Source: a virus. Taken from it: a stretch of 64,000 nucleotides of DNA. This document shows, one piece after another, positions 42,092-64,000 of the stretch. Position numbers and translations under genes: made by a program. Positions within the stretch are counted from its first letter, which is position 1; each line of letters starts with the position of its first letter. The notes under the pieces are model-generated. The model saw only the letters and a program-made list of their open reading frames with translations, was not told the DNA's origin and did not search any database. The DNA is taken from the IMG/VR virus record IMGVR_UViG_3300017987_000013, positions 8,340 to 72,339 of that record. The stretch is one strand, 5' to 3'.

Positions 42092-42793
42092 CTAAGTGAC
42101 GTGTTTCCAGGTCTGCCGATCGACGATTCGACGAACCGTCGTGTGGCTGACACCGTACTTCTTTGCGATCTGTCGATTACTGACACCACCTGCCGCAGCT
42201 TCCGCCCTAATAGCCCTAACGTCAGACTCTGTGACGGTGGCGCTAGGATGATCTTCTCCAAAGGGTCGCCGTCCCGAAAAACCGACATCACCAACTGGCA
42301 AATGCGTCCAGACTTCGCCTTTGACAATCTGGCTAATGAGCCCCTGCGAAACACCATACTCCTTGGCCAACGCAGACTGCGAACCCCATTGCCCTTGATA
42401 CCGCTCACGGATCTCCACGACTTGAGCATCAGTGAGTTTAGCGCGGCCATGACCTGCGCCACGCTTATGCAGCCCAATCGCGTAAGCATGGGCGGTATTT
42501 TCGGCCTCCGTGACCCATTCCAAATTTTCTGGACGGTTGTCGGACTTGATTCCATTTTTGTGGTTGACGACCTGTCCCTTAATTGGCGGGCGCCCATGAA
42601 ACGCCTCGGCAACCAAGGCATGCACACGGACCCGGAAGACAACGTAGAGATAGTCATCCCCCCGAGTGTTTTGCTTGAGGACGTGCCCAGGCATACGGTC
42701 GTTAGACAGTTTGCGTCGCACACGCCCCAAGCTTGAAACCTCATGATCCGGCCACCTCGATACATCCCGCCATTCCTCTCTTCTTTCTTCCAT
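42092..42793 (-). CDS. NUMOD4-HNH homing endonuclease with C-terminal HTH repeats
   Basis: EEWRDV...EVSSLGRVR NUMOD4; VNHKNGIKSDNRPENLEW HNH; two AKLT/ATVT...LAKEYGVS units. Confidence 0.9.
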   Translation of the reverse strand: MEERREEWRDVSRWPDHEVSSLGRVRRKLSNDRMPGHVLKQNTRGDDYLYVVFRVRVHALVAEAFHGRPPIKGQVVNHKNGIKSDNRPENLEWVTEAENTAHAYAIGLHKRGAGHGRAKLTDAQVVEIRERYQGQWGSQSALAKEYGVSQGLISQIVKGEVWTHLPVGDVGFSGRRPFGEDHPSATVTESDVRAIRAEAAAGGVSNRQIAKKYGVSHTTVRRIVDRQTWKHVT

Positions 42794-59786: not shown

Positions 59787-60089
59787 TTAGTGCCGAATCC
59801 TCCCGCCGAACGGCAAGTCGGCTATGCTCATGACCTCCACAGTCGACGGCCTGTCGCGCGCCGTCCCCGCACTCTGCGGCTCCGCAAGCTCAAACGCCGA
59901 GCCAATCAAAACCGCCCATCTAATCCCTCGTTCCGGCCGCTCCGTTATTCCTCGAGCGTCGAGCTCCTGCTCAACAATCCGCTCCGCGGTCGGTTCCGGA
60001 CACCGCCAAGGCTCCTGCCCGGCCTGGCGCCACGCAGCGTGTATGCAGTACGATTGCGCCGCCAAAGAAATCAGTTCAGTGTCAGTCAC
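59787..60089 (-). CDS. hypothetical protein
   Basis: GTGA-coupled ORF. Confidence 0.45.
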   Translation of the reverse strand: MTDTELISLAAQSYCIHAAWRQAGQEPWRCPEPTAERIVEQELDARGITERPERGIRWAVLIGSAFELAEPQSAGTARDRPSTVEVMSIADLPFGGRIRH

Positions 60090-60433
60090 GAAAACTCCCC
60101 CGACGAGAACCCACAGCCGTCGGCGTCAACCCAACAGCGATCTGGGTATTCCAGTGCATGATTGCGGCGCGCGTTGCGCTGGGCATCAACCATCTCACGG
60201 AATTCCTCGAGCGTCACTGAATGACCGTACTCATCGGCGATCGAAACACCGTCACGGGCCAAAAACTCGTACCAATCGGCACACGATCGCAATTCGACAC
60301 CATCCATCACACCAGAAATGCCGTGCCAACCAAAAGTCCAACCACCGGACTGTTTGCCAATGTGGATCCTTTCATCACCCCTTCCACAATGCGGGCAGGT
60401 GTCTGTGTATGCGTAGTAGTTGGTGCCCATCAC
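60086..60433 (-). CDS. conserved-looking phage hypothetical protein
   Basis: MGTNYY..CPHC..HIGKQSGGWTF...IADEYG. Confidence 0.6.
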   Translation of the reverse strand: MMGTNYYAYTDTCPHCGRGDERIHIGKQSGGWTFGWHGISGVMDGVELRSCADWYEFLARDGVSIADEYGHSVTLEEFREMVDAQRNARRNHALEYPDRCWVDADGCGFSSGEFS

Positions 60434-60732
60434 AATCCTTCCTCCAACCGCCGTATCTCCAGCTCCGCACGGTCAGCAACACTAGAAACCCGGTACAGCA
60501 GTTCTCGGAGCCCGTTCAGAATCGAATGTGGGGCCACAGTACCCTGCTGCGGCGTTTGCTCTGCCTTCGGATCCGCCCCGTACAACTTGTCGTTACACTG
60601 CTCCAATACCGTCACAGCCTGCTCAAAACGCGTCACTGTTAGGCCGATCTGCTCCACAACCGTGTCAAATCCGGCCGATACCTCCGGCGTAGCTACCTCA
60701 ACAGCGGGTACTTTATTCGGCGTAAAAGTCAC
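60430..60732 (-). CDS. helical hypothetical protein
   Basis: GGAGGAG RBS; coupled. Confidence 0.5.
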   Translation of the reverse strand: MTFTPNKVPAVEVATPEVSAGFDTVVEQIGLTVTRFEQAVTVLEQCNDKLYGADPKAEQTPQQGTVAPHSILNGLRELLYRVSSVADRAELEIRRLEEGL

Positions 60733-60759
60733 AACTCCTCCTGTATGTGGAAAACTTTT

Positions 60760-60954
60760 CTACGCTACCTTCCGATCCAATAATTCCGCCAACATCCGGC
60801 GCCACACACACTCACCACCGCGTTCATGCGTCACCCTACCACCTCCCTCCCATCGTACCCACGTACGCCGATCGACACCCAGTAGCTCCGCCGCCTGTGC
60901 CTGCGTCAAAACCAGCTCACGACGCCACGCCAGCACCAACACATCATCAGTCAC
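60760..60954 (-). CDS. XRE/Cro-like HTH protein
   Basis: LTQAQAAELLGVDRRTWVRWEGG. Confidence 0.8.
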   Translation of the reverse strand: MTDDVLVLAWRRELVLTQAQAAELLGVDRRTWVRWEGGGRVTHERGGECVWRRMLAELLDRKVA

Positions 60955-61172
60955 TCGTACTCACTCCGACTATGTGACCGTACCGGCCAGTAAAACAAGA
61001 ACCGACGTAGCCGCGCCCAGATCGAAGGCTTTCTGATCCCGTCGATAATCGATTGCTTCTCCGTCAGTGGGTCCACGAACCGATCCCCCGTCAACGTGAC
61101 CACGATGTTCCCGTTAGCCGTCATCCTACCCTACTTTCCAAAAAAAGAGGTACGAGCCGCTGCCAATGTCAC

Positions 61173-61201
61173 ATTCTACCCCCGTTTCACACCAAAATCA
61201 A
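61173..61201 (-). promoter_or_regulatory. sigma70-like promoter
   Basis: TTGATT-N17-TAGAAT in an intergenic gap. Confidence 0.5.
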
Positions 61202-61234
61202 CCCCCAGATGTGCCACAAACCACGTCCTCTGTC

Positions 61235-61783
61235 TCATTTATCACCACGCCCTGCCGAACGCAACCACTCATCCCGACGATCGCACCACTCATCATCCAC
61301 ACCCTCTCGAGACGCTAGCAACAACGCCTCTGCTGCGCCCACCTGCTCCCGTAACTGCTTGTTTTCCTCCCCATAAGACAAACCCCACCCCTTGCCACCA
61401 AACGGCCGCACACCGCCAATACGGCGCGATTCCACTACCTCCCGTATCCGCGATACCACACCCTCTACATCAGAAAACACGTCATCATTCCAAAACCGCA
61501 ACGTCAAAATACCCAGTGCCGCCAAAACCCCATCACGATGACGATCATACAACACAACAGACTCGTCCTGTACGTGATGGCGCCCATCAACCTCTACCAC
61601 CAACCGAACCTGCGGAGCATAAAAATCGACGATATACCCACGAAGAATACGCTGACGACCAAAACGCAAACCAAGACGCTTGCAACGCAAATACTCCCAC
61701 AACTCCCTCTCGGCCGGCGTAGGGTTCTTCCGCATACGGCGCGCGTACTCAAACTTCTCTGGCTTCACCCTGTCCCTAAGCAT
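61235..61783 (-). CDS. DUF559 (Vsr-like) endonuclease
   Basis: ARRMRKNPTPAERELW, YIVDFY, VEVDGRHH, LRFWNDDV. Confidence 0.88.
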   Translation of the reverse strand: MLRDRVKPEKFEYARRMRKNPTPAERELWEYLRCKRLGLRFGRQRILRGYIVDFYAPQVRLVVEVDGRHHVQDESVVLYDRHRDGVLAALGILTLRFWNDDVFSDVEGVVSRIREVVESRRIGGVRPFGGKGWGLSYGEENKQLREQVGAAEALLLASREGVDDEWCDRRDEWLRSAGRGDK

Positions 61784-61805
61784 CCCTCACTCCTCTATCT
61801 TACAT

Positions 61806-63536
61806 TCAAGCAGATGGCTCCGATAAGGCCAAAACACCCTGAGAAAGCCGACGAACGGCGATTTCACACGACTCTTCGTCGTTGTCGATACCAATCACCG
61901 GAAAATTGAGTTTCTGAGCCGCCAGTAAAGTCGAGCCCGAACCCATGAACGGATCCAGTACCAGACCACCAGGAGGCGTCACGAGCCTAATTAGCCACGA
62001 CATCAGGGCGAGTGGCTTGACTGTGGGATGTGTATTCCCCCCACCACGCTCGGAACGAGACGCCTTCGCGCAGTAGAAGAAACGAGAGGCGCCGGCTGGC
62101 ACGTCATGGGCCGTAAAAGCGCGAGCTCCTTTACCTTCACCGTATACGGGACCGCTCATACCGTTCGATCGTGGCTCAGTGCCCCGTAATGGCGCCATCT
62201 GCCCGGCAACTGGAGCCTGTTCATCCAACATCGCCGCCGACTCTTCGTCTAGTACCACGTTCGCGGGCCAGCGACCGGTCGAAGGCATCTTGTATCCTTC
62301 TTCTGATGCACCGACAAAAGAGTTGCTACCCGACGGACGACCATAGTTATGATGAGGCTCTAGTCCCTTAATCCTGCACGCATCAACGTTCAACGCCCCC
62401 GTACCGTGTTCCTGTACATTCGACGCCACCGTGCCCCTAAACGGCTTCCGGGCCAACACAATCGGCGTGTAGTTAGGAACGAACTCCGACGAGGTAACAG
62501 GCTCTTGAACAGTACGTGCGAGGATGAGCTTCAGTTTGGCGGCGACGGCGGAGAAAGTAACACCCACAAGTAAGGCATTTGACTCGGTGCCAGGTTGACC
62601 AGTCGCGGCCTCGATGATGGTGGCTGGCGTGATCGGCGATGGTGAACAATTCAAGGTTCTCAAGTCGGTTGTCAGCCCTATCGCCGTTTCTGTGGTGAAC
62701 GTTTTCTCGTGTTTCAAGAGGTCGCCCAAGATGACGAGCCATGACAACGCGATGTTCAAGCTCAAAGGTATCACCGACCCGGACGGCAACGTATCCATCA
62801 GAGCGGACAAAGCGCCCGGTGTACTGCACTTTTCTACGGCAGTCCACAGAACAGAACCGCACGCCTCGCCTGACTCGTTTTGGCTTAACGTCGAAAGCAG
62901 CCCCGCAGTTTTCGCATATGATGGTAATTGGCATATCGCCTCCATTAAGTTATGAACCAATATGCCACATTCGCCACATAAATCATAGGGTTTCTGAGCT
63001 AAGGTGATGATTTCGTGTGCAGGCTTCAGTGCCGTACCCCAGCCGTCCCATTGCTTCGCAGCAGTACTCGTCGCCAATGTCAAACGCCCCGCACCGTCAC
63101 CCCGAACCTCCATTGAACCAAATCGTTCACGATCACGTTTTGAATCACGCCAGTTTGGCGACATTCCTAAATCTTCCCGTTCCACACCCGCCGCCTTATC
63201 AATCGCTTTCGACACATCCAACGATTTCGGGAACCCCGACCCGTACAACCACACCAAACAGTCTCGTATCTCCCAACCCGCATCCTCGATCGCACACATC
63301 AACCGATGGTGAGTCCGAGTACCGCCAAACGCGACCATGTGGGCGCCGGGCACGCAACTCGCCCCGATATGCCCCCAAAACTCCGTTCCGGGCACGCCCT
63401 TGTCCCACCCCTTGCCCATAAACTTGAGCCCGTACGGCGGATCCGTGACCACAGCAGACACCCCAGAAACCGACACATCCCGACAGTCCCCGTGATAAAT
63501 CACGATCCCCGTTCCCTCGTAGTATGGCTTCAACAC
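61806..63536 (-). CDS. N6-adenine/N4-cytosine DNA methyltransferase (beta class) with in-frame insertion
   Basis: [35 protein letters not shown]; ~182-codon insert. Confidence 0.9.
62473..62934 (-). CDS. HNH homing endonuclease nested in an alternative frame of the MTase gene
   Basis: GGAGG RBS; CENC..FCSVDC Zn finger; EHRVVM...[16 protein letters not shown]; second Zn finger. Confidence 0.88.
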
Positions 63537-63715
63537 TCCCTCACCAACTCCTCCAATATCTCCATCCAACGCCGACGCGGAGGTACTGTCCTACCTCGCT
63601 CCCAACGCCATATCGTCGTACGCGTCACTCCACAACGCACTGCCGCCTCTGATACCGTATATCCCTTCACGCGACGCCACTCACGCACAATTCCTGCCTT
63701 CTCAACCCGATCCAC
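63530..63715 (-). CDS. XRE/Cro-like HTH protein
   Basis: YTVSEAAVRCGVTRTTIWRWERG. Confidence 0.8.
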   Translation of the reverse strand: MDRVEKAGIVREWRRVKGYTVSEAAVRCGVTRTTIWRWERGRTVPPRRRWMEILEELVREC

Positions 63716-64000
63716 TCAAATCGCCTCACTCCCGATATGTTGCATATCCTCGCGGCAAATTCATCCTCAACGCCTAATCTTACACCACGGTCCCCTAAAT
63801 GCAACACCTGGGTTTCCTCACCACCCCCAACCCTAATTTTCTACCAAAAAAAATGCAGAAAAAATCCAGGAGAATGAACGGAGAGGGTCATATTTTGGGG
63901 TGCGGGAGAGGCTCGGTCGCCTGGGGCGGTTGCCGGTTGGTCAGGTGATCGTGTGGTTGGTCCGTCGTCGTCGGCTGTCGTCGATCCTCGATTGCTACAC

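Follow-up and report, generated by a model that had tools for sequence, protein, structure and literature searches.

A DNA methyltransferase gene in the window, by which we mean the whole 64,000-nucleotide stretch of viral DNA analysed here, very probably carries a 'hidden HNH' of the ShiLan type: a spliceless, dual-coding homing-endonuclease gene that lies within a phage methyltransferase gene and is translated through with it, without intron or intein. That this particular copy homes is something we infer. The arrangement itself is already in print (2023-2025). Gosselin et al. (2023, PMC9957025) described the ShiLan domain as a hidden HNH endonuclease lying out of frame in the DNA methylases of mycobacteriophages, and the available text of a later study gives the same spliceless reading for mycobacteriophages (Arsenault, Gosselin and Gogarten, 2025, PMC11855218). 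Judged by its sequence, the present case is a divergent member of the ShiLan-domain family, with 42-44% identity between the HNH proteins.

The methyltransferase gene and the HNH gene nested in it

The host gene is a single open reading frame of 587 aa, counted from the first TTG (61806..63569, minus strand); the gene-caller version, P0004, has 576 aa and starts 11 codons later. It matches PF01555 N6_N4_Mtase (Pfam, E 1.9e-25), its best Foldseek matches are M.BceJIV, CcrM and M1.HpyAVI, and residues 513-576 match DpnA/M1.HpyAVI and CcrM chains. DPPY is found at residues 43-46 and DPFMGSGST at residues 539-547. With PF01555, DPPY ahead of an FxGxG SAM motif and a CcrM/MboIIA/RsrI-like fold, the protein is predicted to be a beta-class N6-adenine/N4-cytosine DNA methyltransferase. 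Among named phages, blastn returned none covering at least 80% of the methylase gene, the best being Cr-LKS3 at 31%. The sequencing runs listed for the gene include none of RNA; they are four DNA metagenome runs from three studies, each a possible source of this DNA, and their contigs yielded only the source contig and short conserved-motif pieces of other organisms; the contig joints in these runs, with sides of just 22-30 letters and 90% likeness, are uninformative on an empty allele or on splicing.

Alignment with seven insert-free homologues, a check proposed in the preliminary description of this DNA, places a gap between E186 and P369 of the host protein. The insert (host residues 187-368; 62466..63011, minus strand) thus separates an N-terminal host part (residues 1-186; 63012..63569, minus strand) from a C-terminal part (residues 369-587; 61806..62465, minus strand) that holds the target-recognition region, HPTVKP and motif I. 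The insertion site falls inside the KPxxE|PhhhARKP motif of the PF01555 methylase and, because this motif is duplicated, the borders can slide by up to 13 codons. With 546 nt, the insert has a length divisible by three, and it is free of stops in the host frame, as had been noticed earlier; its third frame contains 12. Its composition is unlike that of its flanks in the window: positions 62462-63007 have a coding-strand GC content of 0.526 and a GC skew of -0.038, against 0.571 and +0.377 in the N-terminal part and 0.570 and +0.128 in the C-terminal part.

A different frame of the insert encodes an intact protein of 153 aa with a zinc finger-HNH-zinc finger layout (62473..62934, minus strand), in line with the preliminary description. 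Its ATG at 62934 lies 635 nt (3x211+2) past the host start, which puts the HNH gene in another frame than its host, at an offset of +2. The protein matches PF13392 HNH_3 (Pfam, E 3e-12), and four CxxC/CxxxC pairs as well as the HNH residues are conserved in comparison with two relatives. By domain and residues, the nested ORF is a predicted HNH (His-Me finger) homing endonuclease, for which site-specific cleavage is likewise predicted. The ATG is preceded by a linker that codes in the host frame only (62935..62987, minus strand) and bears the putative ribosome-binding site of the HNH gene, the Shine-Dalgarno word GGAGG (62939..62943, minus strand), 4 nt before the start codon; such a short spacing is a point against an internal start here. 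Conserved host-frame words in the linker (...LEA..LW...) correspond to GGAGG plus ATG, and in structural models the linker forms the start of a long helix (H197-225). At the other end, the HNH gene stops with a TAA (62475-62473) inside CCT AAC (62477-62472), the Pro-Asn codons of the second motif copy, which is where methyltransferase sequence had been said to resume.

Inteins and introns are the customary ways in which such an insert spares its host gene. The preliminary description had seen neither intein ends nor sufficient non-coding room for a group I core, and both observations hold. We reject an intein on the grounds that no Hint or intein family was matched at E <= 0.01, that the border sequences are E|I...T|P or A|H...N|Y, and that no C, S or T follows the insert. 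Phage group I introns often harbour HNH genes, and a cryptic self-splicing intron of a group I-like or other class might carry the HNH ORF and render the open host frame incidental. This possibility is discussed in the available text of PMC11855218, where the resemblance between the start of the insert and the sequence following the site is weighed as a possible signature of a guide sequence, and where RNAweasel is stated to have found nothing in the mycobacteriophage members. In our case, searching both strands of 62200-63300 at E <= 10 gave no Rfam intron family and only a chance microRNA match, and the ATG is 77 nt into the insert, with only these 77 nt outside the ORF. We therefore reject a group I or group II intron, with the proviso that an unrecognised ribozyme could escape a search with covariance models. 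An intron would, moreover, need no open frame, yet the host frame is open across the HNH gene in every one of the 56 copies, from 38 lineages, described below, and the likeness of the two motif copies vanishes at third codon positions. Taken together, we regard an intron of any class as highly improbable.

Stop codons in the host frame across related inserts

In the window alone, the case for an open frame that is not due to chance is only moderate. Synonymous permutation within the HNH ORF gave a mean of 1.70 host-frame stops with P(0) = 0.078, while resampling by host-gene codon usage gave a mean of 6.22 with none of 2000 sequences stop-free; the result is weakly significant under the conservative null. 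Relatives, by contrast, make the depletion of stops overwhelming. An HNH-based locus search that was blind to the host frame recovered 63 viral and 2 genome loci, which together with the window and two phage records provided 56 copies flanked by a PF01555 methylase. Over the HNH match, the host frame has no stop in any of these 56 embedded copies, while the third frame has 2-25, and eight free-standing HNH relatives have 2-11 stops in the equivalent frame. The HNH gene always lies one frame behind its embedding host, and the N- and C-terminal host parts always share one frame.

The 56 copies represent 38 lineages (clusters below 85% nucleotide identity), from each of which one representative was summed. 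The expected number of stops over these representatives is 58.4 under synonymous permutation and 183.9 under host codon usage, with none observed, for a joint log10 P of about -39 and -91, respectively. Copies with 31-45% GC are likewise open. We conclude that the open host frame is under selection, and the stop depletion that the preliminary description had named beforehand as a check is thereby borne out. The selection appears to act on openness alone: pairwise amino acid identity is 0.54 in the HNH frame but 0.33 in the host frame of the insert, close to the 0.31 of the third frame.

These data also bear on the alternative in which the HNH insertion has broken the methylase and the frame is open by chance in a moderately GC-rich genome. 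The P(0) of 0.078 in the window is compatible with this scenario, as is the dispensability of the methylase in mycobacteriophages given in the available text of PMC11855218. Interrupted alleles also exist: in one of the 56 copies (L027) the linker contains a host-frame stop ahead of the HNH start, and in another locus (L043) the N-terminal host part contains one, meaning either that dead host genes occur or that these are sequencing errors. Against a broken methylase stand the shared frame of the two host parts, the open frames at 31-45% GC and the retention of catalytic motifs, DPPY being present in 72 of 73 invaded methylase rows and HPTVKP in 65 of 73. Invaded enzymes thus look functional, the joint log10 P of about -39 across 38 lineages leads us to reject a chance open frame, and a broken methylase is almost certainly the wrong explanation. 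Kept catalytic motifs and the 56 open copies in 38 lineages instead favour what had been suggested initially, a homing element that spares its host by dual coding.

Conservation of a ribosome-binding site points to separate translation of the HNH protein. Of the 52 relatives for which an HNH start could be inferred, 28 have GGAGG upstream of it and a further 12 a 4-base Shine-Dalgarno word, for a total of 40 of 52.

The duplicated motif and the fate of the inserted residues

The motif at the insertion site is present twice, as originally reported. Copy 1 comprises K182-P194 (62988..63026, minus strand) and copy 2 V364-P376 (62442..62480, minus strand); the last 12 residues of each, 183-194 (63023-62988) and 365-376 (62477-62442), are 546 nt (182 codons) apart. 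The insert-free consensus, measured in 29 proteins, is KPAWEPIILARKP, and the consensus originally given for this enzyme family comes close to it. The second half of copy 1 (IITLAQKP) would be carried by the element, while that of copy 2 (PIVLARKP) would be native to the host. All 30 lineage representatives share K, P, E, A, K and P in copy 1, and across lineages copy 2 matches the insert-free consensus in its second half. Comparing the two copies of the same locus, amino acid identity is 0.53 and nucleotide identity at codon positions 1, 2 and 3 is 0.62, 0.63 and 0.29. The copies are therefore alike as protein and not as DNA.

Such a duplication could serve as a site for removing the insert, and the preliminary description had allowed for an unrecognised step at the level of RNA, protein or the ribosome. 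In translational bypass of the T4 gene 60 type, the take-off and landing codons match, take-off is directly followed by a stop and the gap is short. In the window, the corresponding codons are GAA and ACG, the gap has no stop and it measures 546 nt, so that bypass is rejected; the third-position identity of 0.29 lends no support to removal at the RNA level either. Of the original proposal, this leaves the protein-level version, and this too we consider very unlikely.

In that version, the insert would be translated and then removed or rearranged by an unrecognised reaction that uses both motif copies, such as Hint-less splicing or clipping by a protease. An open host frame would be needed for this route as well, and conservation of both copies as protein rather than DNA is what one would expect of a protein recognition site. 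Should the copies act as handles of Hint-independent splicing or precise clipping, a step that would take out 182 residues and restore the 13-residue motif, their conservation as protein in 38 lineages would be explained; we rate the chances of this as very small. No Hint or intein family was matched at E <= 0.01, the first residue of the insert is I (Y if the border is placed after copy 1), the residue behind it is P or Y rather than C, S or T, and neither border has a nucleophile conserved across lineages. We know of no precedent for Hint-independent removal of such an insert from a protein. Finally, structural models accommodate the insert as a loop-out. In the AlphaFold model of this protein, copy 1 forms a core beta-strand (E184-192, pLDDT about 85) and copy 2 a coil leading into helix 381-388; the same assignment, a confident strand for copy 1 and a coil for copy 2, was obtained in both of two AlphaFold models, while confidence is low within the insert (pLDDT 36-60 over most of it). 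The alignments used for AlphaFold omitted 18 of 120 listed homologues, namely P0004, most long proteins (about 660 aa and more), P0024, P0068, P0093 and P0108.

The favoured dual-coding reading may be pictured as follows. The element would lie within the coding sequence of the enzyme's most conserved strand (KPxxE|PhhhARKP). With a length of 546 nt, a multiple of three, and no host-frame stop, ribosomes from the methylase start codon would read through the insert and produce a full-length enzyme, in which some 182 additional residues, mostly helical and poorly conserved, are presumably looped out between the catalytic and the target-recognition halves. By bringing a recoded copy of the displaced strand half (IITLAQKP), with the native half (PIVLARKP) following the insert, the element may ensure that the N-terminal half of the enzyme still receives a complete strand, as the models suggest. 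From the same mRNA, the HNH protein would be made separately, through the internal Shine-Dalgarno word and ATG in the +2 frame, as the conservation of these signals implies. Its presumed target during co-infection is the intact motif of insert-free alleles, which it would nick or cut; repair from the invaded allele would then copy the element in, with short co-conversion tracts for which relatives provide support. One observation sits uneasily with this scheme: if copy 1 fully replaces the strand, conservation of the second half of copy 2 at the level of uninvaded enzymes stays unexplained.

Spread of the element and comparison with known systems

HNH matches over at least 80% of the length were found in 16 phage records from 11 phages, including ShiLan, Mantra and Bipolar. 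Fifteen of them lie under CDSs annotated as DNA methylase or methyltransferase; the other is the GenBank Mantra record, in which the CDS is called 'hypothetical'. Identity to HNH proteins inside phage methylase genes is 42-60% over 95-97%, and 42-44% over 95% of the query (E about 1e-25) for ShiLan, Bipolar, Mantra and others. We found the same build by hand in Cr-LKS3 g59 and Mantra gp64. The element ranges from the marine/sediment phage to a cyanophage, a contig of a betaproteobacterial MAG and dozens of metagenomic viral contigs; the survey of other phages and prokaryotes in PMC11855218 may, to judge by its available text, overlap with these loci. One sub-lineage, sampled at 11 loci, has inserts that are 89-95% identical, whereas the flanks are down to an identity of 0.59 some 120 nt downstream and of about 0.35-0.6 at greater distances on either side. 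An insert far less diverged than its flanks is the mark of a selfish mobile element and suggests recent spread in this sub-lineage. The nearest insert-free homologue of the gene in the window is 70% identical, and we found no near-identical empty allele, so that for this copy the precise borders as well as the mobility are presumed.

The HNH gene or the insert might also have been domesticated and have lost its purely selfish character, an idea also raised in the available text of PMC11855218. It would then benefit the methylase or the phage, for instance through modulated specificity or, jointly with the methylase, in defeating competitors. Insert length is tightly kept: by a rough motif-to-motif measure, 64 of the 98 proteins parsed by regular expression (out of 123, with 25 unparsed) have an insert of 180-199 aa, and shortened ('mini') inserts of 5-139 aa are absent from these 98. 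The long helix following copy 1 in both models agrees with a domesticated role as well. On the other hand, the host-frame sequence is no more conserved than the unused third frame, presence is patchy, with 25 uninvaded and 73 invaded close methylases among the 98, and in the sub-lineage just described the insert is far less diverged than its flanks, as befits a selfish element. We thus consider domestication unlikely.

An intron, an intein or an intergenic site had seemed indispensable if a homing-endonuclease gene was to spare its host gene. ShiLan-type elements suggest a third way, in which one frame encodes the nuclease, the other is held open and the host protein acquires a tolerated loop. 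The relatives indicate that this family is not an actinophage curiosity. To what is in print, the window adds very strong selection on the open frame, a duplicated motif kept at the protein level and a Shine-Dalgarno word before the HNH start in most relatives, all of which sharpen the proposed mechanism of these elements. The arrangement also has consequences for annotation: gene callers predict a single long methylase and overlook the nuclease.

The closest known system is the ShiLan domain, for which the work in print is computational in PMC9957025 and in the available text of PMC11855218; a literature search, which otherwise returned a preprint from the same group and a genome announcement, found no experimental follow-up. 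It shares with the present case the methylase family, the KPxxE|PhhhARKP site, the relative frame of the HNH gene and a stop-free host frame. Its zinc finger-HNH-zinc finger protein is homologous (42-44% identity over 95%), its insert also begins by mimicking the residues after the site (here IITLAQKP for PIVLARKP), the HNH stop also lies in a terminal TAAC, and intein and intron signals are lacking in both. Patchy distribution and an insert less diverged than the host genes have been reported for actinophages (PMC9957025); in our data the latter is seen in the related sub-lineage, while the present copy offers a contrast in composition. The differences begin with the host, which is an uncultured 72-kb phage from sediment/seawater metagenomes and not an actinophage. 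The insert has 182 aa rather than 202 aa, the HNH protein 153 aa rather than the proposed 195 aa, and the insert is followed by P or Y where the ShiLan inserts have T or S. The available text of PMC11855218 proposes a leaderless GTG 18 bp into the insert without a ribosome-binding site; the window has no such start but an ATG preceded by GGAGG. We take the GTG as a proposed feature and not as one that defines the family. In our alignment, the mycobacteriophage copies have GGAGGA just before a conserved GTG further into the insert.

Out-of-frame nucleases in inteins offer a second parallel, as they too place a homing nuclease in frame 3 of an open host frame, and distant relatives of the present HNH protein sit out of frame inside terminase inteins (L062, L064). 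There, however, the intein splices the extra residues out, and the methylase insert has no splicing domain. With inteins that carry an in-frame HNH or LAGLIDADG nuclease, the element shares insertion into conserved motifs of phage genes, translation with the host and spread by homing, but it lacks Hint blocks and the terminal C/S/T or HN, and its nuclease lies in another frame. Further comparisons are the HNH enzyme encoded by a group I intron (I-HmuI) and free-standing HNH enzymes that home without an intron, for example T4 MobA together with the gene 60 bypass cassette. In these systems, as presumably in the window, the HNH enzyme drives copying into empty alleles, and its own target is disrupted without killing the host gene. 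Unlike them, the methylase element has no RNA core, no bypass codons and no split into two genes; here, the disruption would be tolerated at the level of the protein.

A nuclease gene nested in a methyltransferase gene

The methyltransferase ORF of the window (61806..63569, minus strand; 587 aa; Pfam PF01555 N6_N4_Mtase, E 1.9e-25) contains, in another frame, an HNH ORF of 153 aa (62473..62934, minus strand; Pfam PF13392 HNH_3, E 3e-12). As read from the sequence, the HNH gene has its own GGAGG (62943-62939), an ATG start at 62934 and a TAA stop (62475-62473) within CCT AAC, where methyltransferase sequence resumes. A host motif of 13 residues is found on both sides, with copy 1 at 63026-62988 and copy 2 at 62480-62442, 546 nt apart, all on the minus strand. 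Since the reading frames, protein types, translation signals and motif positions are as the preliminary description had them, its observation of a nested HNH gene with its own ribosome-binding site between two copies of a host motif was correct in every detail. The window makes up the right-hand 64 kb of its source record, a 72,339 bp virus with direct terminal repeats, and sediment and seawater metagenome runs contain the window's DNA.

Most likely, host translation would read through the dual-coding insert, while the HNH protein would be initiated separately. Removal of the insert at the protein level after translation is improbable; against an intein route, the Pfam search of the window ORFs returned no Hint or intein family at E <= 0.01, in line with the absence of intein ends noted before.

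Among copies with an identifiable HNH start, GGAGG precedes it in 28/52 and a 4-base Shine-Dalgarno (SD) word in 12/52; in four copies no start was found within the range scanned. The GGAGG-to-ATG spacing in the window is only 4 nt. The linker, the host-frame-only stretch between copy 1 and the HNH start, carries conserved host-frame words (...LEA.LW...), which are the footprint of GGAGG and ATG. Mycobacteriophage copies read GGAGGA, three bases and GTG, which suggests an SD-led start downstream of the leaderless GTG that section 4.3 of PMC11855218 puts forward.

Host-frame openness across related inserts

Proteins found through a long ORF are open by construction, and the search for relatives was therefore based on the HNH, using an alignment of three HNH proteins that is blind to the host frame. 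Viral contigs yielded 63 loci in this search and genome contigs 2. The search loci, the window and two phage records provided 56 methylase-flanked copies, with both flanks present in 54 and a contig end cutting 2; in every copy the N- and C-terminal host parts share one frame and the HNH lies one frame behind. Over the HNH match, the host frame contained 0 stops in 56/56 copies, including those at 31-45% GC, and the third frame 2-25. Twelve viral loci lay outside this methylase, four in other long ORFs and eight free-standing, the latter with 2-11 stops in the equivalent frame.

The copies form 38 clusters below 85% nucleotide identity, of which the published mycobacteriophage type accounts for two. 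Summed over one representative per cluster, 58.4 stops were expected from synonymous-codon permutation within each ORF and 183.9 from the codon usage of the flanks, corresponding to a joint log10 P of about -39 and -91, respectively (the second value has a floor of 1/2000 for each locus). For the window alone, permutation expects 1.70 stops (P(0) 0.078) and the codon-usage null 6.22, with 0/2000 stop-free resamples. This depletion of stops across all 38 clusters favours the earlier proposal that the element spares its host gene by dual coding rather than splicing. Two observations speak against it: locus L027 has a host-frame stop in its linker, upstream of the HNH start (about 2470; IL*NL versus ILSNL in relatives), and L043, a 31% GC copy, has one in its N-terminal host part (about 2331). 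The 56 embedded copies contain no other host-frame stop, and these two may be dead alleles or sequencing errors.

Pairs of lineage representatives had a mean amino acid identity of 0.54 when compared in the HNH frame, against 0.33 for the host frame and 0.31 for the unused one, and HNH codon positions 1, 2 and 3 differed by 0.37, 0.33 and 0.56. With host-frame identity near that of the unused frame and HNH third positions the most variable, what is conserved in the host frame is therefore only that it stays open, and not the peptide itself. Elsewhere in the window, a 259-aa open frame contains another, weak match to the HNH core (42482-42625, minus strand; 40% identity over residues 60-107, E 1.3e-6).

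The insertion site and its duplicated motif

Foldseek matched the host model to the beta-class N6-adenine methyltransferases M.BceJIV, CcrM, M1.HpyAVI and MboIIA, and phmmer against the PDB matched its SAM-binding end. Alignment with seven insert-free homologues, the nearest being P0018 (371 aa, 70% identity), left a single gap between E186 and P369; the insert therefore splits a strand whose sequence, taken over 29 uninvaded proteins, is KPAWEPIILARKP. Insert lengths are bimodal (98 parsed of 123 proteins), with none in 25, 140-259 aa in 73 and nothing between, and in the invaded enzymes the catalytic motifs are retained (DPPY in 72/73 rows, HPTVKP in 65/73).

The motif flanks the insert in nearly all copies. 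Among lineage representatives, copy 1 has K, P, E, A, K and P in 30/30, with Pro6 in only 8/30 and Arg11 in only 6/30, and in copy 2 the second half stays native (Pro6 27/31, Arg11 26/31) and the first half is looser. Within 24 loci, the two copies share 53% amino acid identity and nucleotide identities of 0.62, 0.63 and 0.29 at codon positions 1, 2 and 3; even for identical residues, third positions agree in only 34%. The copies are alike as protein and unlike at third positions. Their similarity is thus maintained as protein, which argues for translation of both and against a guide-sequence or bypass role. The suggestion that ribosomal bypass or an RNA step removes the insert by way of the duplicated site finds no support in a third-position identity of 0.29. 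AlphaFold models were built for the window enzyme and, from a different sub-lineage, the L028 enzyme, with about 100 homologues each. In both, copy 1 is a core strand modelled with confidence (E184-192 and E165-173; pLDDT about 80-87), copy 2 is coil that runs into the recognition region's first helix, and the insert consists of helices of low confidence. From these models, the second half of copy 1 could be a spare strand brought by the element.

Directly after the methylase lies a DUF559 ORF (61235-61783, minus strand; 182 aa, E 4.5e-30) with a Vsr-like nuclease fold. Because an intein preprint (10.1101/2025.01.02.630785) reports that VSR-like nucleases act as homing endonucleases, this gene may be a second selfish nuclease adjoining the same methylase. 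Two small XRE-type helix-turn-helix ORFs flank the region (63530-63715 and 60760-60954, minus strand; HTH_31, E 6.9e-10 and 3.6e-5), and an XRE helix-turn-helix is fused into the variable loop of some homologous methylases (P0041 and P0063, by source names; Lilizi gp100). GC skew is -0.24 at 60001-64000 (locally -0.5) versus -0.05 to -0.15 elsewhere, G exceeding C on the coding (minus) strand much more at this right end.

Spread and relation to known elements

In the Cr-LKS3-like sub-lineage (11 loci), the insert is 89-95% identical, whereas flank identity drops to 0.59 some 120 nt downstream and, at greater distance on either side, to about 0.35-0.6. Judged from these alignments, the contrast is what recent spread leaves behind when co-conversion tracts are short. 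In the window copy, by composition alone, coding-strand GC skew is -0.04 in the insert versus +0.38 and +0.13 in the flanks. At L050 (2347-2826), another HNH of this family (46% identity) occupies a different site of the methylase, where it takes the place of the variable loop that separates GFPK from W.GWNVALKP. Its relative frame is unchanged and the host frame is open, but the motif is not duplicated.

A tblastn search of 50,697 phage records with the HNH query matched 75, of which 16 cover at least 80% of the query and represent 11 phages (Cr-LKS3, Mantra, Totinger, Starcevich, Bipolar, Pollywog, MISSy, Murica, Filuzino, ShiLan and OwlsT2W). All 16 matches lie under one long CDS, annotated as DNA methylase or methyltransferase in 15 and hypothetical in one. 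Cr-LKS3 g59 (616 aa) and Mantra gp64 (774 aa), checked by hand, show the same arrangement, with flanking motif copies and an HNH read in the other frame; Lilizi gp100 is a relative without the insert. The N-terminal part of Mantra gp64 (L002, about 1500-1950) also carries an in-frame LAGLIDADG domain without intein blocks, described as a lone LAGLIDADG insertion in section 1.2 of PMC11855218.

Such inserts have been described before. Gosselin et al. 2023 (PMC9957025) named a 202-aa 'ShiLan domain' discordant with the methylase tree, and Arsenault, Gosselin and Gogarten 2025 (PMC11855218) discovered the out-of-frame HNH inside it. The latter authors report a host frame without stops, neither intein nor intron signal, a terminal TAAC and first 11 insert residues resembling those after the insertion site, and propose, on computational grounds, that the insert is unspliced and loops out. 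The window element is well supported as a real, divergent member of this published kind. Distant HNH relatives (26-40% identity) also lie out of frame in the endonuclease slot of inteins (L062 2525-3142, L064 2432-2971, also L063 and L065), each with its own ATG and an open intein frame; at L062 the host ORF encodes a large terminase. Preprint 10.1101/2025.01.02.630785 describes the same out-of-frame placement in inteins for endonuclease VII-like genes.
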